DNA of 64,000 nt, from the NCBI GenBank assembly GCA_000004985.1, contig GG738889.1. One strand, 5' to 3'. The notes below the pieces were generated by a model that saw only the letters and a list, made by a program, of their open reading frames with translations, did no database searches and was not told where the DNA came from. The position numbers and the translations under genes are program-made. Position 1 is the stretch's first letter, and each line of letters starts with the position of its first letter. The stretch is from Naegleria gruberi. Taxonomy: Eukaryota. Below are positions 585 through 59,265 of the stretch, piece after piece.

Positions 585-1295
585 ATGAAAGCAACTCGAC
601 AACTAACTACACTCCATCAGAGATTGAGAGTCAAAATAATGGCAAGTCCCCGAATGTTTAATTTGGAAAAAGTTAGTAAATATGCTGGAAAACCTGGATC
701 AATAAGGAGTAATGCAATGAATTATGGAGTGGATAATACTGCCTTTACACATTCCGATATTCCCGAAAGAGCATTAGAAAAAAAGTTGGAAACTATTGAA
801 ATTAAATTGAGGAATAGAGAAAATAGGTTGGTAGATTGTTTTGATTTTGATAACTTTTGAAGAAAACCTGAATGGAACTGTTCAACATTTACAAAAGAAG
901 CTTCGGAAGAACGAGCTCTATTGAGGACACTTAGTAAGGATTATTATAAAGCTGACAAGGAAAAGAAAGAACGAGATGCAAACAAACCACCATCTAACTG
1001 GAATACAAGTACTTATTTTACGAAAAAAGAAACAAATGAACATGACGAAAAGAAACTTTCGAAATCTTTGAGAAATACTAAAAAAGTTATCTCTGAGGTT
1101 AATGCACCTTCGTTAATTGAAAGAGAAAAATTGAAAAAAGAACAAGAAATGAAGGATAGAGAAGAGGCAACCAGAATAACGATGAGAGAACACTTTTTAA
1201 ATTCACCTCCAGTTACTTTAGGTCTTGCTAAAAGATTATATGGAGATAAAGGTAAAGAGAGCACTGTAACATATGTAGTTAAAGATCTTGCTTGA
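585..1295 (+). CDS. hypothetical protein; two ORF halves (585-860 and 861-1295) in the same frame, separated by one TGA
   Basis: ATG at 585. The second half has no ATG of its own (its ORF-track start is TTG) and is GC-richer and coding-like, so it probably continues the first half. The TGA at 858-860 is either inside a 36-nt intron (GTTGGT...GAAG, weak donor) or is read through or recoded. Confidence 0.3.
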
Positions 1296-1368: not shown

Positions 1369-1390
1369 TTTTGGCGCCAATATTTGGCGC
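1369..1390. promoter_or_regulatory. tandem E2F-type motifs, TTTGGCGC x2, 36-57 bp upstream of the cohesin start codon
   Basis: cttTTGGCGCCaatatTTGGCGCtc: two exact TTTGGCGC octamers (1370-1377 and 1383-1390), 13 bp apart, in otherwise ~25% GC intergenic DNA just 5' of ATG 1426. Confidence 0.4.
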
Positions 1391-1425
1391 TCAACATAAA
1401 ATTCACAATCAAAAAAAATAACAAA

Positions 1426-4400
1426 ATGGGTAGAACTCCACGTATTGCCAAGCGCAAAACATCAACAAAGAGAAAAAGAAAGGATGAGAGTGAAGATGAA
1501 CACGAATCTGATCAATCAGAAAATGAACAAGTAACTGTGGCCTCTGAACAAAGCGAAGATGAACAATCTGAAGCAGAGGAACCATCAGAACCATCATCAT
1601 CAGAAGACGAAGCCTTCCACGATGATGAAAAGGATGAGGATTTCGAGCCTCCAAAACCAAGAACATCAAGAAAGAAGTCTACAACAAAAAAGACAACAAC
1701 CAAGAAAAAGGATACAACAACAACAACACCTAGGAAGAAGAAACTTAAAACTGGTACATCAACAACAACAAAGAAAACAAAAACTAGTGGTGAATCTAAA
1801 GGAAAAAAGAAAGGATCAAAGAAAAAGGATGATATTATTGAAGAGGATATGGTTGTTGTAAATGAAGACAAGGATTCTATGTTTGCTTCTGTTAGAAAAG
1901 AAAGCTCAGCTATCAGAGAAATTGTTGACAACTGGCAAGAAAGCTTTGATTCTGATAAATCAAAGGCTACTGCTGAATTGTTGACATTTTTATTACACTC
2001 ATCAGGTGCAAAGGGTGAAACAGAATTTGCTGCAAAAAAACTTAAAGTTGTAGAATCATCAAAAATGGAAAAGGTTATTGATGATTTGATTGAAGAATTA
2101 CCAACTAGTCTGCAAGTTTATCCAATTATTAACAATCACCCATCTCTCAAACACTTTAGAAAGAACTTTGCTGATTTTTGGGATACTTTTGTTGATGTAA
2201 CAAAGGAAGGTTCACAACTTTATGAAAAGATTATTCAAGAAAAGTTTATGAATTGGCTTTTCTTAATGACATCATCTACTTGCAGAGCTTTGAGACATAC
2301 ATCAACATTGGCAGCATATCGTATTGCCTCTAGCGCCATTGATGCAAGAAGATCAGAGGCTAAAACATTGGCTAAACTTGAAAAACAAGCAAAGGCAGCC
2401 AAGAATAAGAAGAAGGAAACGGAATTGTTGGATCTGTGTGAAGAACATCAAGATAAGACAAACACTCTGGAGAAGATATGTAAAGATATCTTTTCGCAGA
2501 TTTTTGTTAAGAGATACAGAGATTCATGCCCAGATATTCGTGCTCTTTCTCTTTTACAAGGTGTTGAATGGGTTATTGGACTTCCAGAACAATTTTTAAA
2601 TGATTCTTCGTTAAAATTCTTTGGTTGGATGTTAAATGATACTGAAGAAAGTGTAAGAAAAGTTGCTGTCCAAGTTTTGGATAAAATTTACAGTAAGAAA
2701 GATTGGAAAGATCAATTGAACAATTTTACATTACAATTTTTACCAAGAATTATTTCAGTCACTCGTGATGTTTCAGTTTCAGTTTCTGTTGAAGGAATCA
2801 AACTTTTAACAACACTCCTCCAAAATGGTTACTTGAAAGCTAATCACATTGAGGAAGTTTCCAAACTTATGTTCAGTGAAGTTTCTAGCGTAAGATTTTA
2901 TGCTGCCAAGTTTGCGTATACACATATCAAATCTAAATCAGATTCATCTAAGTCCAAGAAATCCAAAAAGTCTGATGTCAGTTTGAAAGATGTTCTTGAA
3001 TTTGTTTCTGAATCTGTTGAAGAGTTTCCTATGGCTCCATATTATGTTGTAGATTCGTGGTGGAGTCTTGATAGTGATATTTTCAGAAGCTACAAGCAAA
3101 TTTGTCAAATGATCAATGATGAAGAAGGTGATGCTATAACATTAATCAAGATACTTAATGCCTCCATTCAAAAACTTAAGGGTTCTTTGAAGAGTGTGAC
3201 AAGTTCGTCAGATAATGTTAAAGTTAATACAAAATCTAAACTTACAACAAAAGAAGTAGAAGAAGAAGTTGAAGAAATTACAGGTATTTTAGCACCATAT
3301 CTTTCAGGATTGATTGATAAATACAGAACTGAACCTGAAATTGTTGCAGAGTTGATTGAAATTCCACAACATTTAGATATGGATAATTACGCTGAATCAC
3401 ATTTCACAAAACTTTTAAAGTCTCTTAAAGAAACATTGAACACAAATATTTCCCCAACAGTATATCTTCAAATTGCTAAAACATTCAAATATCTCATTAA
3501 GGATCATGAGGATTTCTCACTCAGATCAGAGGCTACTCTTCAATATAATGAGATAATCAGAGAAATGTCATCTCAACTCAAAGATGCTGTTCAAACACTT
3601 CACGAACAAGATGAACCAACAGCAGACGTGTTATCAACATTACACAGAATAAGAGCCTTTACAAAGGTTGTAGGAACTTCACAATTAATTGCTGATGAAG
3701 TTTTGTTTGAAGATATGAACATTATTTTAGAGTCAAAGATTTCAGAAATTGAAATGTCACAAAAGGATGATTCATCTAGTTCTGAAGAAGAAGTTGATGA
3801 AGTTACACCTATCATTATTGATATTATTCAAGATGATTTGTTCTGGACTCTAAAGGACTCATTGGAAGAAAAGGGTGAACCTAGAGCCAAACTTCAAAAG
3901 AAGTATCTAACTAAGCAAGAAAAGATTACAACTCCTCTTTTCTACGTATTAAAGAAAGGAAAGATTGGGTCTTCCATCATTTTACATTGTTTCAACCATT
4001 TAATGAATATTTACATGATTACATGTGCTGATAATGTTGGTTCTGATACACTTATTCCATTAACCACTAATGATAGAGTTGAAATTTTGAGAAGATTCTT
4101 CACCAAGTCAATGAAACATCTCACTAAGGAATATATTTTGAATAGTGTTTCTGATGAAGAAAATGTAGATGAAGACGAAAAGAAGAAGAAAGATGCTAAA
4201 ATCAAAGTAATCAATCAAACAGTTTCTGATCTTATTCTAGGATTATCAAGAGCTATTATCTGTAAGAGTTTACCAGATACTCTTATTCCAGATATTTTAT
4301 CATACTTTGTCAAGACCAAGATTCCTATTGTTGAGGATGTCATCAAAAAGTTCCACGCCGATATTAAACACCGTTTCGAATCCAAGTTATGGGAATATGA

Positions 4401-4995
4401 ATTTGGTGCTTTGAAGGTTTTACACAGTGCTTATCTCGATTATGTTGAACAAGAAGAAGAAAAATCAATCATCAAGAAAGCCAGCAAAGATTTGGAAGAG
4501 TTAGGCTCCAGAATCAGCAAATCTCACTTCCCTGGAAAAGATGTTAAACATTTGGAATCACTTGTTACTCATACCATCAACTTTATCTTTGATGATATTA
4601 ACCAATATCATTCATTCCTTACTGGTTTAATGAAATTCCGTTTCAAGGGTCTTTCGGACGCCAAGAGATCCGAATTTGTCAAATCAATCAACAGAAAACT
4701 TGACCAAATTGATGATATTGACAAAAAAGCAAAGGAAAATGTTGAATCATTCATTGAACTTTTGGAAGTAAAGAAGAAGAAGGGTGATGAAACAGAAGAC
4801 GAAAAGACTGACAATGAAAAGGATAAGATGGAAGACGAAGAAGAAGAAGAAGAAAAGAAAGATGAAGAGGAAGAAAAAGAGGAAGAAAAGAAAGATGACA
4901 AGATGGAAGATGATGACAATACTCAAATATCTGAAACTAAGGAAAATGAAGAAGATGAAGAATTAATCTCAAGCAAACCTAGATCCTCCCTTTAA
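1426..4995 (+). CDS. cohesin subunit SA/Scc3 (STAG family)
   Basis: Stromalin conservative domain FVKRYRDSCPDIRALSLLQGVEWVIGLPEQFLNDSSLKFFGWMLND. Basic/acidic N-terminus and an E/K/D-rich C-terminal tail ((GAA)n-type codon runs at 4836-4900), typical of SA/Scc3. ATG at 1426; the ORF-track start at 1384 is TTG. Confidence 0.85.
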   Translation: MGRTPRIAKRKTSTKRKRKDESEDEHESDQSENEQVTVASEQSEDEQSEAEEPSEPSSSEDEAFHDDEKDEDFEPPKPRTSRKKSTTKKTTTKKKDTTTTTPRKKKLKTGTSTTTKKTKTSGESKGKKKGSKKKDDIIEEDMVVVNEDKDSMFASVRKESSAIREIVDNWQESFDSDKSKATAELLTFLLHSSGAKGETEFAAKKLKVVESSKMEKVIDDLIEELPTSLQVYPIINNHPSLKHFRKNFADFWDTFVDVTKEGSQLYEKIIQEKFMNWLFLMTSSTCRALRHTSTLAAYRIASSAIDARRSEAKTLAKLEKQAKAAKNKKKETELLDLCEEHQDKTNTLEKICKDIFSQIFVKRYRDSCPDIRALSLLQGVEWVIGLPEQFLNDSSLKFFGWMLNDTEESVRKVAVQVLDKIYSKKDWKDQLNNFTLQFLPRIISVTRDVSVSVSVEGIKLLTTLLQNGYLKANHIEEVSKLMFSEVSSVRFYAAKFAYTHIKSKSDSSKSKKSKKSDVSLKDVLEFVSESVEEFPMAPYYVVDSWWSLDSDIFRSYKQICQMINDEEGDAITLIKILNASIQKLKGSLKSVTSSSDNVKVNTKSKLTTKEVEEEVEEITGILAPYLSGLIDKYRTEPEIVAELIEIPQHLDMDNYAESHFTKLLKSLKETLNTNISPTVYLQIAKTFKYLIKDHEDFSLRSEATLQYNEIIREMSSQLKDAVQTLHEQDEPTADVLSTLHRIRAFTKVVGTSQLIADEVLFEDMNIILESKISEIEMSQKDDSSSSEEEVDEVTPIIIDIIQDDLFWTLKDSLEEKGEPRAKLQKKYLTKQEKITTPLFYVLKKGKIGSSIILHCFNHLMNIYMITCADNVGSDTLIPLTTNDRVEILRRFFTKSMKHLTKEYILNSVSDEENVDEDEKKKKDAKIKVINQTVSDLILGLSRAIICKSLPDTLIPDILSYFVKTKIPIVEDVIKKFHADIKHRFESKLWEYEFGALKVLHSAYLDYVEQEEEKSIIKKASKDLEELGSRISKSHFPGKDVKHLESLVTHTINFIFDDINQYHSFLTGLMKFRFKGLSDAKRSEFVKSINRKLDQIDDIDKKAKENVESFIELLEVKKKKGDETEDEKTDNEKDKMEDEEEEEEKKDEEEEKEEEKKDDKMEDDDNTQISETKENEEDEELISSKPRSSL

Positions 4996-7799: not shown

Positions 7800-10700
7800 T
7801 CAATCCTCTTCATCTGTTTCCCAATCATTGTCGCTATCTACCTCTGGATTTTCGTTATCATGGAGGAGAGGATAATTTGTGGCAATGCTAATTAATGCCA
7901 AGCAACAGTTTACAGTGTATTCATAAAAGATTTCTCCATCAACCTCAATTTCTCTATGTCGATATTGAGATCTATCCACTTGGAACGAGAAGGGCTCCAT
8001 CGAATGCAAAGTCTTTTTTGTGATATCCATGGATTCAGTGTTAAACTCAGAATTGGCGAATACTGCTTTGATGGTTATTGATTCTATACCATCTTGTCTC
8101 TCTTTGTAAGTAAATGAACAGAGTGATAGTCCAACACGTGATTTCTCTTTCAAGAGTTTGGTTTCTATTGATAATTGTTAAAATAATGCTTGAAATCTGC
8201 AATACTTACTTTGGGGATTGTCCATTGCTGTGAACCGAGGTGAGAATTTGACTCCAAATGCTTCAAATTGATCACTATAGCAGACCTTTCCAACATTTTC
8301 AGGTCTTAAGCGAAAGACAATTGTGTGTATTGAAATTGGAAATTCTGAAGCCATTCTGTGAATTAATGGAGGATAGTTTGTTGTAGACAATTCCTTTCTT
8401 CCTTTGTGGAATGACTCTATATCAACTTGATGATTTGCTATTGGTGTATCAGTAATTTGCTTCATTCCAATAAAGAATTTAAATATGAGAAATTCCTCAT
8501 CCCTTGTTGAGAATGGTTCAACATATTGCTTCTCTACAAATAACCCGTAACTCGAAAGTATCATGTCAAATTTACGAGAATATATTAGATAAGAACTAGC
8601 ATCCATGTCAAAATTTCTAATAGAAAATTCTATTCTAATTCTGTCGAATTGACCTGTTTCTTCATTATGATTAATTGTTGAATTGAGTGTCAAAAATATT
8701 GAACAATTTCCATAATCTTCGTCTTCATCTACAGGGAGAAATTCAACCATCCACTCATATCCACATTCAATAAAAGGGTCAGAGACATAAGTAGTATTGA
8801 AAGGGCCTGTCTTTGGAACCTTTACAGTTACTAGGTGAAGAGCGTGGTCTTTTTTGGAAATATTGGTTTTGGCATAATCCAATAAATCTTCGGTACTCAT
8901 TTGTCTCAACTCTTCTGTTGTGTTAGGTATTGATATTGGAAGTCCACTACTGGTATCACCAACAAAAATGGATTTTTTCTTTAAAATAGCTTCTAATGTT
9001 TTCTTGGATATCTTGAAAGGATTTTGATGAGTTAACAAATCTATAAAGTCTGAAATATAGGTAAATTCAGGGCAGTTGTCTGCAATCGTGTTAATTATAT
9101 TTACAAATAAATTTCCAGAGTAATGAGATATTTCTTTGTTTCCACTAAAGAATTCATTCAACAACCTTTGGACCAGATCTTTCAAGCAATCCTCATATTC
9201 TACATCAGTACCAACAGTTTCTAACAAACTGTCAAAATCATAAAAAAAAGAAAAGTCATTCAAATCTATCAAAATATTGGCCACTGTATAAAGACTTTGT
9301 TGCGATTCAATCGACCTTAAAACTTTTTTCAAAACCTTATTGTAAGACAAATCAAATGAAATCGATTTAGATTTCCATAATTGATCCAACATTTGGAAAA
9401 CTGAGTCTATGTCATCACGTTTCCATAACGAATCTGTATATGTGAATGTTATTAAAAATAATTTGAAAATCTCTGCACTCTCTGAATAATTAATTATCTT
9501 TTCTCCTGAATAATAGAAAAGTCTTTGAATTGCCAGGCTTGCATCTTTCATTTCTCGTACACTGATTCTTTGTTTGGTATAGGAAACAACTTGCTCAATG
9601 TTTTCATAATTAAGCTTTGGGTAAAACTTTCTACTCTCAGGATACGGGTGCTTAAAAATAATAGTTATCCTTGGATTATCATGTTCAAAACTAGAAAAAA
9701 TGGAACTAGTAATGGATGGATCATAACTATTTAGTAGTAGAGTTCTGCACCTTGTGAATTGCGAAAGATAATAAGTTGATTCAATAGTCAAAGCTTTTTC
9801 CTCGTTATATAGTATTTTGAGAATTTCCAATCTTTCTTTTAAATATGGTACTATGCCCTTGATAAAATCATCTTTGATTGAACAGCAGTTGAAAGATAAT
9901 GTTCTCAGATTTTCGGCAGAGAGCAGGGCTTCTAATAATCCATCTTCCAACCCCGTAAACTTAACATCCTCTCCACAAACAAATCCAATATTACCTAGTG
10001 ATTTTGGAAGTCTTAATTCGTTGAAATCTTGAATAGTTTCAGTCATTTCAATTTTTAGACTTGTCAAATTCACTAAATCTTTCAAATTTTTCAAATGATT
10101 ACGCGTTGGACTGTTAACGATAATATCCAGAAATTTTAACGATATTGGTAGAAAACCAATGCATGAGGTAAAAATAGATGATCCGTATACCTTTTCCAAA
10201 CTGTAACTTCTTAATTCTTCTAAACTACTGCTCACTGTACTCTCTGTTAATGACCCACTAAGCTTCAAAACATGTAAACTTTTCATAGAATCTTTCAAAA
10301 AAACAAATTGATTCTCTTCTGACAATTCCTTGTCGCACCATTTCAGTTTTTCCAAATTGCTACCCGTCATCAAGTTGATTAGAATTTCTTTGTAATTCTC
10401 TAAATTAAAACCACCAAAAATTGATACAGACTTTAAACTTAAATTGTTTAGACTCTCAATAAGTCTTTCATTTTTGATTTCTAATGAAGGATAATCCATA
10501 AAATCCAAGTGTAACGAAGTGAGTTTGTTGTGTCTAATTATAAATGTCAGTAGAGGATCGATTACAGCTGATGATTCTCCATCATTAAAGAATATTCTCA
10601 ACTTATCTAATGTTGGAATAAACAAAGACCTTTGTAAACTTTTAACCTTTGGATTATCTGTAAATGGCCAATAAATTCTAATCTTTTTCAAGCATGGGAA

Positions 10701-20963: not shown

Positions 20964-21191
20964 GTGTGTTATGAATTTATTTTTTTTGACTTTGGAAATT
21001 GTGATTTTATTGAGCGAACAAATTATGTGAAATGGGAACGGACAAATAGTCGTTTAGAAAATCTTCTTAATAAACGTTGAAAATTATTATTGAGTATAAA
21101 GGTATGTATAGATCTAACGATTATTCCATCCTTAGTTTTTGATTCTTCACATGCCACGTTTCATAATTCATCCATCAAAAAATAGAAAAAA

Positions 21192-31159: not shown

Positions 31160-31603
31160 ATGAGTGATAAAATAACAAGTCTTCAAGATCAACTTTCTCT
31201 CATTTCTAGGGTTATGGTTGACTCTCTGGGTGTTTTACAGAGAGATGCTCCTCCATCCATAACAGATTATCAACTTAGAAATGGATTACCAATGGTTTCC
31301 GATACAACAAAAGCTGTTTGGACACCAGAGCAATTGAGAGAACAATCTGAAGAAGCAGGAAAGAATTTAGTAGCAGCTTGTTTAGAATTTGAGAAAATGT
31401 TAGATGAACTACCAACTTTAATACGATCGGAAGAGGATCAAACAAATAGATTGAAGGATTTCCAATCACAAAATGAAAATCAAACACATTTATTGAAACA
31501 AAAAATTGATTTAGCAGAGGATTATTTGCAAATAGTATCAAATTCAATTGAGGATATTACAAATAATAGATTACAAGTAAGACATCAGAGTAAAAAGAAA
31601 TAA
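31160..31603 (+). CDS. MED21: Mediator complex subunit 21
   Basis: DKITSLQDQLSLISRVMVDSLGVLQRDAPPS matches the MED21 N-terminal helix (DRLTQLQD...IGVLQQ..PP). ~148 aa, with a coiled-coil C-terminus. ATG at 31160; the ORF-track start is TTG. Confidence 0.75.
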   Translation: MSDKITSLQDQLSLISRVMVDSLGVLQRDAPPSITDYQLRNGLPMVSDTTKAVWTPEQLREQSEEAGKNLVAACLEFEKMLDELPTLIRSEEDQTNRLKDFQSQNENQTHLLKQKIDLAEDYLQIVSNSIEDITNNRLQVRHQSKKK

Positions 31604-31849
31604 TTTATAAGACCAATGATAATTCCAAATAGTAGTAGTAATATTACAATAATAATTTACGGATTCAAAGATTAATACTATTTCACTGTAACACAATACG
31701 GAAATGAAATTGGAAATTTTACAAAATGGCTTCTTTTGAGGTAATTGATAATACAAATGTATTTTTCACATCTTCCCGCCAAAACCCTACCGCCTTTTCC
31801 GTATTAAAAATCTCCAAAATACAATTAATAAAAACACAATACAAAAAAA

Positions 31850-32398
31850 ATGAACAAACAAGTACTCGATAATGCCCTCTTAGCTTCTGCCCAAATCATT
31901 GAAAAGAGTTTGGATGAAAAGCTGAAGGAAATGGATGAAATGACCGATGATGATTATATGATGCTTAAACAAAAACGTATGAATGCCTTGAAACAAAAGA
32001 ATAACATGAAGGCTGAGTTTCTGCAGAAGGGTCACGGAAGGGTTATGGATGTCACTGACGCCAAGGACTTCTTCAATCATGTTAAGGATAACAAATTCTG
32101 TGTAGTTTTATTCACTCGTCCAAGCAATGAATACTGTGATATTGTGTTGAGCCATTTGCAAAAGATTGCCCAAAAGCACTTGGAAACCTTATTCATTAAA
32201 GTAGATGGTGAAAAGTGTCCAATCGTTGTGGAACATTTACAAATCTGGATGATGCCAACTGTTGTTTGTATTAAGAATGGAAGAACTGATAACTCGATAG
32301 TGGGCTTGGATGAATTAGGAGGATCCAATTTCACAACACCAACTCTTAGAAAGATGTTATTAGGTTTTGGTGTTATCGAAAGAGAAGAAGACGAATAA
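31850..32398 (+). CDS. TXNDC9: thioredoxin domain-containing protein 9 / phosducin-like protein 3
   Basis: N-terminal coiled coil, then a thioredoxin-fold segment GHGRVMDVTDAKDFFNHVKDNKFCVVLFTRPSNEYCDIVLSHLQKIAQKHLETLFIKV that is collinear with PhLP3. Confidence 0.75.
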   Translation: MNKQVLDNALLASAQIIEKSLDEKLKEMDEMTDDDYMMLKQKRMNALKQKNNMKAEFLQKGHGRVMDVTDAKDFFNHVKDNKFCVVLFTRPSNEYCDIVLSHLQKIAQKHLETLFIKVDGEKCPIVVEHLQIWMMPTVVCIKNGRTDNSIVGLDELGGSNFTTPTLRKMLLGFGVIEREEDE

Positions 32399-36855: not shown

Positions 36856-38480
36856 ATGTCTTCAATAGAATTTGATTCATTGACAAGTGGAAAGTCAGTA
36901 TTAGAAAGAGCCAAATATATTCCAATTCGTTTGACATTTGAGGAGAGAAAGAAATTGAGATTGTTGGAAGCTACTTTGACTGTTAGTGAATATACTGATA
37001 AAATTGATACTATTAGAACATTTGGAAAGTTGAAGAGAATTAAAGAACAATGTGAGGAAATTTGTGCAATTTTGTGTGGTTTGATGGTTGCTGCTGATTA
37101 TCAAAAAGGTCAAGAATTGATCGCCAATAAGAACTTTCAAGATAATGAAGAATTTTTCCAAGATGTGTAAGTGTTCAATATTTGTAATGTGACAAGTCAA
37201 CTTTGTGAATAGATTTGAAATTGGAAGACGTTACAAGATTATGAATCCTGAAAAGATGAGAGGAACCTATGGTAAACTCTGTTATATTATTCAAGACAGT
37301 CAACAACCTGAAGTTCAAGAAATGTTAGGATTTAAACTTGATAGACCTGTCAAGACTGTTCATTGGTTCTTGGAACAACATGATGCTCTTGAAATTCTTG
37401 AGGATAAAGATATTGACACTGCCACAAATGAAATTTTTGCAAATGGAAAGACAAGAATGCAAGTTGAAGAAGAAATTAAAATGAAGGAAAAGGCAGCCAA
37501 GAGAATTTGTAAAGTTTACTCTGAGTCATGTGAAATGGAAGAAGAAGATATTGAAAAATGTCTTTACTCAATTGGTGATAGTAGTGCATATCTTAGACAA
37601 GCCGTATATCCAGTTGAAACCATCCTCTCCTTCTTGCTGAATAATTTCAAGCGTGATGATTATGAAGATGGTCACTCATTGGCTATTATGGCAGGCCATG
37701 AAGGTGCTCGTTTATCTCACAATCATGCCATTCAATTTGATTTCGTCTATCAAACTCTTACATTGTGGAAAAATGTTGGAAGAGATATGTTTGAATTGTG
37801 GTTCTTAGCTGAAAGAGATTTGTTCTCATCTACACATACCTATTCCTTAAGAAATACTGGTCAAGGTCTCAACAGAGTTCAATACTGTCCAAATGTTAGA
37901 AGAGCAATGGAAAAGTTGTTATCTCAAACACAGAATAGCACCTCTTCTTGGGTAGGAAGTTCAGTTATTCACTTGGGTGATGATGCTGTTCCTAACAGTT
38001 TAATGTTTATTGACAAGTATACTCAAATTTCAAGAATTTTGAATGTATGTATTTTCACTTATTATTTACAAACTTTTGAATTAGCCAATCATTCAAACAA
38101 TTACAGAAATTGATAACTATATGATTAAGGATCAAAACTTGAAAGAATATATCAATACTACATTTGGAGGTCCAGAGGAAGCAAAGATGACAATTTTGAT
38201 CGATCTTTTTAGACATGGATTTGACGGGTAAGTTATGTGGTTTTCATAATTACTAATTTGTTTCATTATTAAGATCGGGTGCTGATAACTTTTTCATGGC
38301 TGGCTCTTGTATAGATGGTAGATTGACAAGTGCTTGGAATTTCTGTTCAAAGGTTAGTATCTTTCTAATTTCTCGTATTCTTATTCAAAATTATCTTAGA
38401 TCAATAAGAAGAATTATTTCCCTCTCTTCCTTTTGGGAGGCTTCATTGGTTTCGATGGTGGTTCAGGTTTTGACAGATAA
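36856..38480 (+). CDS. conserved hypothetical protein (~467 aa), 5 exons
   Basis: Exons 36856-37166, 37213-38044, 38130-38227, 38274-38352 and 38400-38480. Introns of 46, 85, 46 and 47 nt with GTAAGT/GTATGT/GTTAGT donors; all phases are consistent and the total is 3n. C-terminal GGFIGFDGGSGFDR. The 85-nt intron has an alternative acceptor and is less certain. Confidence 0.55.
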
Positions 38481-47400: not shown

Positions 47401-47738
47401 AGGAAACCAGATTCTGACCAAATAAATCGTTTTTGTGGATCAGCATTCAAATACTTGATCACATTATCAATGATCACAGTTACATTATATTTCGAATAAA
47501 AGTTTACAGTCTCCAACCATCCCAAATCACAATGAGAATGAGCAACAATAAAAGCATTCACAACTGAATCCGAATTTTCTTTTAATTCATCAAATTCCAC
47601 TTCTTGATGCCTATTATTACTCTTTGCTTTAGCACATTCAACCCTATTCGGAATTTCCAGCCCCACAAATAATATTACAACAATTATTAATACTACTAAT
47701 ACATTAATATACAAAGGTCGCTTTTTTCCATTGACCAT
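44487..47738 (-). CDS. GH38 class II alpha-mannosidase (lysosomal type) with N-terminal signal anchor and C-terminal TM segment
   Basis: GH38 N-terminal motifs AHSHCDLGWLET and RFIWSESGFLEMWW; central and C-terminal GH38 domains. ATG at 47738 precedes a hydrophobic stretch LYINVLVVLIIVVILFVGL. A second hydrophobic segment lies near the C-terminus. Confidence 0.85.
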   Translation of the reverse strand: MVNGKKRPLYINVLVVLIIVVILFVGLEIPNRVECAKAKSNNRHQEVEFDELKENSDSVVNAFIVAHSHCDLGWLETVNFYSKYNVTVIIDNVIKYLNADPQKRFIWSESGFLEMWWNNSTQTQRDAFKKLVHNKQIEIVNGGYVMTDEALPTYSAIIDQMTQGHQFVQKVIGADIQVGWQIDPFGASRTFAYLLSKMGFKYHVVDRIDERLKHKYREIPGSGTYAIEKHFEWEWCPSHSDPNSCIFTHVLEHHYSAPEICFNDGTCTGFDFESDPASNPPITNENIDARASLLVDYMRNVSKTYRTNNVLIPFGNDFRFQKANLMFDNMDLLISYINKNFQRFGVNMRYSTLSEYFEQVHNKTNPNVFPVKTYNSDSYSDYFPYPTCWGVDEDQFGDCIAYWSGYFVSEPQFKQLVRESERLLRNCEMIFTACQSELYKVETSLNRNIEKDLNQAEEALQYMRNSVALALHHDAITGTEKRFVLKNYTDIIQNATVALKNKTSLIFEYVATRGVTKDLLNVSLDQSLLLDEKKPIYALTLFNSLGWTTQEYIKIPVKANSISVYYYSRETGDVTQIDSDVVKEIDGTTYLYFKASVVPVGFSTYFIIQQDFKATTIEKKQTQYENVVNMENGYIKATFELTNGKLPYVLKSITNKYTGTTTTISQKIAQYVSYGDGAYILRTTGYAQDLVFETEYLDCIISNGKVVQSLSQRYTNNVTQTFVIYNEYNIPENGFVLDMSTSAQTGDNKEMITEFSLGDVQTTLYTDSNGYEMIERPYAPSRFNDSYFFNKIAGNYYPIVESSFIRSNDIQLTLFTRQAAGVASLRNGSIEFMLNRNTLTDDDRGLGENLNVTQTVTIPLRILLAPPSDSSNYRPTISKLFNAPALRMFSNSISLYASLATDSDIKEAVLTYVGKFNSESRFLNELPSNIHLLSLQTRNNVTTPNQRFTALRLQHIYEAQESLIHSKPVTLYPQAIFSDYFISNIVEMTMSLNYATKNLNFTKIILKPGEIRTFSLDLWNSEQGDDWFSISSFLFGAAAVIPVFLIVIVLISVTLSCQKNREISDSNHHNVINESTRFFERDE

Positions 47739-48187
47739 CACCAATGGAAGCCTTGAAGAGTTGGTTGTAATAGGATGAAAATTTCCCGCCAAGCTCGAGA
47801 GATGAAAACATTTTTTTTTAATTGATTTGATCAAGTTTTGTATTTTTTGAATTGTTTTTAAAAAGGATTTGTTTTTAAATTGTGTATTGTTTATAACGAG
47901 AAAATAGTATTTCCTTAAAGGGTTATCTGAATATTTTAATAAATTAATATTTATAGATTGAAGAATATTTTACAAAATTAAATAATTAAATGTTTATGAA
48001 ATAGAGCAATTTGTTAATTGGAATAGAATAAATTCCGACTATTGTCTTTAGTTACACCTAGGTGGCCATGTTAGGAATTATGGAGGCCCATTTTCCTAAA
48101 TAGTCTTTTAATTCCCATTTAGAAACCAGAAAAATCAACAATTTATAATCAATTTCACATTTCACAATCAAAAAAAAAATAAAAGCA

Positions 48188-57982: not shown

Positions 57983-59080
57983 CTAGTTCTTCAGTGGTGT
58001 TTCAGATATTGGTCTGTAAGGATTCGATGTGGAGACAGTAGTTTCTGGTACATAATTCTGAATAAAAATGGCCATATCCAACCATAATTCCAAACATTGA
58101 ACAGCATGTAAGTTATCAAATTCCTTCATGTAGAGAAAATATTTGGGCACTATTAATGTTTGATTATTGATGACTTGCTCTTCAAATTTAGCCTCCAAAA
58201 CGAACAGAAAGGCAACTTTTTGTAGGTATAACAACCCCTCCACTTTGCTGTACTTTTCCATTTGTTCCTTTTTTAAACGAAAGTGTTTCATGTTTTCTCT
58301 GAAAAAGTTATTTAAATCCAAGTGAATAACATCTTACCTTAGTAAACTCTTCATACAAATAATCAATTTCTGGCCGTCTGTTCCTGGATTGTTCCACTTC
58401 ACTGGATGGTCGATTGCCTTATCTTCCCTTATCAAAAATCTACTTTCTTCAGTTTGCAAAAACCCATCATTTCGTACTTTAATTAGAGGCAACTCATCAC
58501 ATAAACAAACTGAATGTTGTTTGTCCCTGATCATATTCTCCTATTAGCATTTCTATTAATAAGAAACTTACCCATTCAAACTGATATTGTTAAAATTTGA
58601 ACATAGTGCATTAAATAGACTATTAATGGCTGAAGACACTACCATGTCTCCCAAAGGTTCTCTTCTTTTATAAATATCGAACAACTTTCGTGTCGAACAT
58701 AACAACTCCATAACTGTCCCAATACTGGCTCTGCACCCTTCAAAAGAGGATTCGAGCTCTAGCTTTAAACTTTCAAACTTTTCCCAGCTATCTTTCTCTT
58801 GGTAAATGTCGGTAATCCTTTCCAAACTTTCCTTTGGGAATGAAAAATCAGGTTTCCAACTCATAGGTGTAATGTCGAGTGTTGAGAAGAAAGGTGCACT
58901 TTCTTTTGCCCAATAGGGAAGATCCTGATTTTCGGAAATGATTGCTCTTTCACAAAATCTCACAAAAGCCTCAAGTTTTCCTTCATCTTCCACAATTCCC
59001 TTAATTACTTGTTGTAGACTTTGCTTTAGTCCCTCCTTGCTGTCTTCTTCTGCTCTTTCGATGAGTTTTCTCTTTGGCAT
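57983..59080 (-). CDS. hypothetical protein (~338 aa), 3 exons
   Basis: Exons 58572-59080, 58338-58526 and 57983-58298. Introns of 45 nt (GTAAGTTTCT...ATGATCAG) and 39 nt (GTAAGATG...TTTTTCAG), both 3n and both containing in-frame stops. Phases are consistent and the total is 1014 nt. Confidence 0.55.
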
Positions 59081-59265
59081 TTTTTATAAAAAATTAAGGC
59101 GGGAATGAATCTCTAAAAGATCATAATATTGTATTTATTAAAATATCAGGAAGTTGATAATGGACCACCTATCACTTAGTACATGTTTCTTTCATACTAC
59201 TATTGATATTTATAGTTTTCTAGATCCTTTAATCTTTTTTCAAGATCTGTAATAAGATTTCTTTT

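Follow-up and report, generated by a model that had tools for sequence, protein, structure and literature searches.

A conserved pair of E2F-type sites upstream of the cohesin SA/Scc3 gene in Naegleria gruberi and its heterolobosean relatives

Results

The SA/Scc3 gene and its upstream spacer

The stretch of DNA from the amoeboflagellate N. gruberi that was analyzed (64 kb, hereafter the window) is nuclear, with a G+C content of 30–36% and densely packed genes that are mostly intron-poor. It includes the gene for the cohesin subunit SA/Scc3 (Table 1), whose ORF matches a predicted N. gruberi protein at NCBI along its entire length with 100% identity. An intergenic spacer of 130 bp (1296–1425; 27% G+C) separates this gene from its upstream neighbor. 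The spacer holds the E2F-type sites described below, and SA is the gene that these sites are presumed to regulate. Besides SA, no further replication or cell-cycle gene was recognizable in the window. Genes identified elsewhere in it include a homologue of the Mediator subunit Med21 (31160–31603) and a DUF2009 non-canonical E2 gene (37205–38113). The orthologue of the SA upstream neighbor was found in N. lovaniensis and in a second Naegleria assembly (L002), whereas in Willaertia magna a DUF2009 gene takes this place. The fact that the DUF2009 gene is located elsewhere in the N. gruberi window, but beside SA in Willaertia, indicates a local rearrangement between the two genera.

Table 1. Features of the N. 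gruberi window and E2F-type boxes of orthologous SA promoters
Feature	Position	Strand	Sequence	Remarks
Stop codon of the upstream same-strand gene	1293..1295	+		5′ limit of the intergenic region
E2F-type site 1	1370..1377	+	TTTGGCGC	Part of the perfect palindrome TTGGCGCCAA
E2F-type site 2	1383..1390	+	TTTGGCGC	13 bp downstream of site 1
A-rich block	1402..1418	+	TTCACAATCAAAAAAAA	Between the E2F sites and the SA ATG
Cohesin subunit SA/Scc3 gene	1426..4995	+		Intronless, 1189 aa; Pfam STAG, SCD and HEAT_SCC3-SA domains
A-rich block with the pattern (T)TCACAATCAAAAAAA(A)	~20970–21010	minus		At a window gene start
E2F-like box with CCGCC 12 bp further	31773–31796		TTCCCGCCAAAA	66–77 bp before a thioredoxin/phosducin-like (TXNDC9-like) gene, 31850–32398
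Strict E2F-type match	47782–47789		TTTCCCGC (GCGGGAAA on the gene strand)	Precedes a GH38 mannosidase gene (minus), ~46 bp from its probable ATG at 47738
E2F-like box	59099–59105	minus	TTCCCGCC	~20 bp before a 170-aa ORF, 58568–59080 (minus)
N. lovaniensis (L001) SA promoter boxes			TGGCGCCAAttTTGAGCGCC	
L002 SA promoter boxes			TGGCGCCAAttTTAAGCGCC	
L004 SA promoter boxes			TTGGCGCCAAatgTTTGCGCCAA	
Willaertia magna (L003) SA promoter boxes			TTTCCCGCCAAAaaccaattccaaCCCGCCAAA	

Two exact E2F-type octamers lie in tandem before the SA start codon

An initial annotation of the sequence had described two perfect E2F-type octamers in tandem immediately upstream of the cohesin SA/Scc3 gene, at 1369–1390. 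Both octamers (TTTGGCGC) are present as described, and only the start of that span requires correction, since position 1369 is one extra T. The octamers lie 36–56 bp upstream of the SA ATG, with a conserved A-rich block immediately on their 3′ side. Each matches the degenerate E2F consensus TTTSSCGC exactly. Site 1 overlaps a perfect 10-bp palindrome (TTGGCGCCAA, 1371–1380), through which it also scores on the minus strand, as TTGGCGCC.

No further copy of the octamer occurs on either strand of the 64 kb. A repeat or transposon fragment was considered as the source of the pair and was rejected on the grounds that the motif has no other copy in the window. Dinucleotide shuffles predict 0.37 exact copies of TTTGGCGC per window, as opposed to the two observed, and 0.92 matches to TTTSSCGC, as opposed to three. 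Arithmetic based on these shuffle rates gives an expectation of ~1e-4 or less per window for pairs of such motifs (TTTSSCGC or TTTGGCGC) that are separated by no more than 30 bp. The claim that this arrangement is unlikely to have arisen by chance is thus upheld.

Single E2F-like boxes also occur before genes of apparently unrelated function, where one or two are expected by chance. The only other strict TTTSSCGC match in the window precedes a gene for a GH38 alpha-mannosidase with an N-terminal membrane anchor, and this single site is consistent with chance. Judging from its sequence, the box and its CCGCC companion before the TXNDC9-like gene are possibly a further E2F-type promoter, similar in arrangement to that of Willaertia SA. 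A third box precedes an ORF of 170 amino acids, which gave no match in Pfam or the PDB and probably represents the initial exon of a larger gene. The existence of such boxes before apparently unrelated window genes means that the motif alone is not fully specific.

These single strict or near-strict matches would be in keeping with a view of the SA octamer pair itself as a chance occurrence that has no function. This view is very improbable, given both the low expectation for two exact copies 13 bp apart and the conservation described in the next section, wherein two boxes are kept in all four of the other SA promoters compared, as opposed to ~0.004 7-mer matches expected per 100 bp. Because the boxes are conserved, a chance origin is effectively refuted.

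The pair of boxes is conserved in orthologous SA promoters

SA orthologues were compared from N. lovaniensis, from L002 (a Naegleria Logan assembly whose SA protein is 88% identical to that of N. lovaniensis), from L004 (run SRR636569, which is cited in papers on metagenome mining and represents a more distantly related organism of Naegleria type, with 55–59% identity), and from W. magna (49% identity). The four promoters represent three further lineages. L002 and N. lovaniensis are close relatives and not independent samples. Two GC-rich, E2F-like boxes are present at the matching position in each of these four heterolobosean SA promoters (Table 1), about 30–75 bp from the ATG, whereas the flanking AT-rich DNA is unalignable. 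Indeed, the only conserved blocks in a MAFFT alignment of the SA promoters are the E2F boxes and the A-rich block. The conservation proposed in the initial annotation is directly borne out by the four orthologous SA promoters.

The block that corresponds to site 1, GGCGCCAA, is kept in N. lovaniensis, L002 and L004; Willaertia has TTTCCCGCCAAA instead. In all four Naegleria-type SA promoters the two GCGCC boxes, and likewise their GC cores, are spaced 13 bp apart; in Willaertia the spacing is 21 bp. In N. lovaniensis and L002 the second box (TTGAGCGCC and TTAAGCGCC) does not fit the strict consensus.

The orthologous promoters also bear on whether the boxes serve the SA gene as DNA elements at all. 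The spacer is only 130 bp long and must also house the 3′ end of the upstream gene, and site 1 is a perfect palindrome. The element might therefore be read as the 3′-end or termination signal of the upstream gene, or as an RNA hairpin formed by TTGGCGCCAA in the SA 5′ UTR. Both readings are scarcely credible. In N. lovaniensis the boxes are found ~145 bp beyond the stop codon of the neighbor, whereas their distance to the SA ATG is unchanged, and in Willaertia they stay with SA although the upstream neighbor is a different gene. The constant distance to the SA ATG, together with the different neighbor in Willaertia, rules out chance and a 3′-end signal of the neighbor. Likewise, the neighbor of the RB gene described below is divergent, such that no 3′ end is nearby. 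With regard to a hairpin, the Willaertia sequence TTTCCCGCCAAA is not self-complementary, and thus it is the E2F consensus that is kept and not the palindromy.

A further alternative is that a different, possibly lineage-specific factor reads GGCGCC or GCGCC, wherein the motif would still function in the promoter but its likeness to an E2F site would be coincidental. The best-conserved core is GCGCC (GGCGCC in Naegleria), and the T-run is imperfect in several orthologues, two points that speak for this alternative. However, the Willaertia SA sites are of the CCCGCC type, and the change from GGCGCC to CCCGCC corresponds to the S/S degeneracy of the E2F consensus, which argues against a GGCGCC-specific factor as well as against an RNA hairpin. 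An unrelated factor is also at odds with the finding that the other carriers of the element, RB and DEL, are textbook E2F feedback targets, and with the presence of a suitable E2F protein whose recognition helix is as in human. We therefore consider such a factor unlikely.

An A-rich block is shared by SA and other gene starts

The second conserved feature of the alignment, a block of the form TTTTAACAATCAAAAAAA just before the ATG, is kept in all five SA promoters. An identical A-rich string is present ahead of the ATG of another window gene (48160–48180), and blocks of the form (T)TCACAATCAAAAAAA(A) are found 10–25 bp before the ATG of several genes. Runs of at least six A residues precede 12 of the 33 putative gene starts in the window, as opposed to 4% of random windows. 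From its sequence and distribution, the A-rich block is probably a core-promoter, initiator or 5′ UTR element that is a general signature of Naegleria genes. On the L004 contig that carries SA, TTTTCCACAAA(T)CAA blocks flank the E2F boxes on both sides (10–25 and 68–87), and these two blocks may be initiator-like elements.

The same module recurs upstream of RB and DEL genes

As a-priori targets, cell-cycle regulators under E2F control in animals and plants were picked before their promoters were inspected, and the genes were fetched from relatives of N. gruberi. The RB gene of Willaertia carries ATTGGCGCC and TTTGGCGCCAAA at positions –46 to –28, with an A-run between these boxes and the ATG. 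By comparison, only 0.25 strict TTTSSCGC matches are expected in the whole 18-kb Willaertia RB locus. A metagenome scan for RB homologues gave no match with N. gruberi RB alone, whereas an alignment used as the query identified one distant RB locus (L009, eukaryotic contig JAESGV010000063.1). This homologue is 40% identical to a Naegleria-type RB (P0118), and TCCCGCC and GCGCCAAAA are found 14 bp apart, ~45–67 bp before its first ATG. The DEL gene of N. lovaniensis has three boxes within 232 bp of its annotated ATG (TTTCCCGCC, TTTTGCGC and TTTGGCGC), two of which are perfect sites. The E2F and cyclin A promoters of N. lovaniensis have no E2F-type site.

Several features of these loci are recorded here as separate observations. 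The Willaertia RB gene and a kinesin gene are divergent and have a common intergenic region of 207 bp (L007, 7474–9793; 9794–10000), and the RB boxes could serve the kinesin gene as well. An extra TTTGGCGCC is located at position 8321 of this locus, within the kinesin coding sequence. The three DEL boxes of N. lovaniensis (L005, positions 9769, 9841 and 9913) are spaced exactly 72 bp apart, with no obvious 72-bp repeat. The SA and DEL genes of this species are located ~180 kb apart on one 428-kb contig (PYSW02000039.1), and this co-location is probably without significance.

Strict sites were counted in upstream regions of 150 bp at 76 gene starts, drawn from the window and eight loci. They were found only before SA, RB and DEL and before one of 67 control genes. 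Over the 179 kb covered, eight of the ten strict matches are upstream of SA, RB or DEL, and the remaining two are the site in the GH38 mannosidase promoter of the window and the site in the coding sequence of the Willaertia kinesin. GGCGCC hexamers are similarly concentrated, six of the seven being located in the promoter of an SA or an RB gene. Three positives among five a-priori promoters correspond to a probability of the order of 1e-6, as computed from a per-promoter chance of ~0.001–0.006. A Fisher-type count that compares two of four candidates with one of 67 controls gives ~0.007, also by arithmetic and for a small sample made up of relatives' genes. The evidence from RB and DEL promoters thus concerns a small set of genes from relatives and not N. 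gruberi itself. These results are supportive of a putative regulon of E2F-pathway genes that share the element, but do not settle its existence.

Naegleria encodes proteins suited to read the consensus

The sequences of N. gruberi E2F, DP, DEL (E2F7/8-like) and RB were obtained from the source data of Medina et al. 2016 (PMC4862756), a study that describes E2F/DP/RB-type regulators in Excavata and in which SBF and Whi5 were not found outside fungi. Pfam assigns E2F_TDP and CC-MB domains to the E2F protein, E2F_TDP and DP domains to the DP protein, and two E2F_TDP stretches to DEL. A database search recovered E2F, DP and RB, as well as a cyclin, as N. gruberi proteins at NCBI, and thus the E2F/DP homologues on which the initial annotation depended are present in the proteome. 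The N. gruberi DEL model was absent among the matches of this protein database search. N. fowleri and N. lovaniensis yielded relatives of all four regulators; Willaertia yielded relatives of E2F and RB, and Acrasis those of E2F and DP.

The DNA-contacting RRXYD helices are intact in both N. gruberi E2F and DP. Specifically, the 24-letter recognition helix of N. gruberi E2F is identical to that of human E2F4 in the E2F4-DP2-DNA crystal structure 1CF7, and the DP helix (RRRVYDALNVLMA) is the same as that of animal DP. The fact that the E2F helix is unchanged from human implies that N. gruberi has a protein able to read TTTSSCGC, and an E2F-type element is therefore to be expected in Naegleria.

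This protein set raises the question of which family member binds the SA promoter. The main binder could be the DP-independent, E2F7/8-like DEL protein with its two DNA-binding domains, in which case the pair would be a repressor element that silences SA once S phase is over. Two E2F_TDP domains are present in N. gruberi DEL, orthologues of which exist in N. fowleri and N. lovaniensis, and the Willaertia sites (TTTCCCGCCAAA) resemble the optimum for E2F7/8. A DNA complex of an atypical E2F, E2F8, is on record as structure 4YO2. However, the sequence has no feature that separates typical from atypical E2F binding. We regard DEL as a possible but doubtful candidate for the main role. Atypical E2Fs read the same consensus as typical E2Fs, and in animals and plants both classes occupy the same sites in turn. 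Because the two classes alternate on the same sites, a role for DEL would refine the explanation in terms of E2F-family binding, not exclude it.

Discussion

The two octamers probably function as binding sites for E2F-family proteins of Naegleria, be it E2F–DP or the DEL/E2F7-8-like protein, in the putative proximal promoter of SA. They would make SA transcription dependent on proliferation or on G1/S, under the control of RB. By analogy with animals and plants, RB-bound E2F–DP would keep SA expression low outside G1/S. Free E2F–DP would then turn SA on before S phase, such that cohesin is ready as sister chromatids form. RB and DEL would be wired into the same motif to provide feedback, and the presence of the same module upstream of the RB and DEL genes of relatives indeed suggests the familiar negative-feedback wiring. 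The identity of the binder (E2F–DP or DEL), the choice between activation and repression, the timing of expression and the position of the transcription start are points that we infer from the analysis as a whole.

The existence of E2F, DP and RB in Naegleria was already known (Medina et al. 2016, PMC4862756). In the literature searched, we found no published E2F DNA targets or cis-elements for Naegleria, other Heterolobosea or Discoba. The pair described here is very probably a real, conserved and ordinary E2F promoter element in a distant branch of the eukaryotes. No new mechanism is revealed by it. Its value is evolutionary, in that it points to cis-wiring, as well as proteins, having been conserved since a very early eukaryotic ancestor. 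If the sites are functional, then the E2F recognition sequence, together with its wiring to RB, to an atypical E2F and to cohesin, has been retained throughout almost all of the eukaryotic tree. Such conservation would favor a last eukaryotic common ancestor whose G1/S switch was already complex and animal-like. Functional sites would also provide a short and well-defined proliferation-linked promoter element for work on Naegleria, including the pathogen N. fowleri.

A broader proposal is that the whole E2F–RB module predates the split between Discoba, animals, plants and amoebozoans. This module would comprise the TTTSSCGC consensus, paired sites near gene starts, negative feedback through RB and DEL/E2F7-8, and a cohesin target. 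The chances that this proposal is correct seem to us about even. The ancestor that had the complete module would plausibly be the last eukaryotic common ancestor. If so, cis-regulatory wiring has persisted alongside the proteins for well over a billion years, and the fixed 13-bp double site of the Naegleria SA promoter makes this promoter a compact natural test case.

Tandem or overlapping E2F sites near the transcription start are found in the human E2F1, RBL1/p107 and DHFR promoters and in adenovirus E2. The Naegleria element resembles animal E2F promoters in its TTTSSCGC consensus, in having two sites that are about a helical turn apart or palindromic (as in TTTGGCGCCAAA-type sites), in its location less than ~100 bp from the gene start, and in its occurrence on pocket-protein and atypical-E2F genes, which would create feedback loops. 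It differs in that it belongs to a heterolobosean amoeba (Discoba), has a 13-bp spacing that is fixed in Naegleria, and is a candidate known from its sequence and conservation.

The initial annotation further held that SA orthologues are E2F-regulated in animals and plants. This could be verified for human, for which the MSigDB hallmark set of E2F targets (printed in PMC10579819) contains STAG1 along with RAD21, SMC1A, SMC3 and PDS5B. Human STAG1 and Naegleria SA are thus alike in being SA/Scc3 family members that are classed as E2F targets, although the human assignment is based on expression and ChIP and that for Naegleria on motif and conservation only.

In budding yeast, MBF and SBF drive G1/S and cohesin genes via the MCB element ACGCGT. 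The functional logic proposed for Naegleria is similar, namely G1/S transcription of cohesion genes through a promoter box that contains CGCG, but the yeast transcription factor is unrelated and is derived from KilA-N. Plants have E2F elements of the TTTCCCGC type in the promoters of RNR, PCNA, MCM and CDC6 genes. These elements share with the Naegleria sites the same consensus, a promoter-proximal location, and an E2F/DP/DEL/RBR set of proteins.
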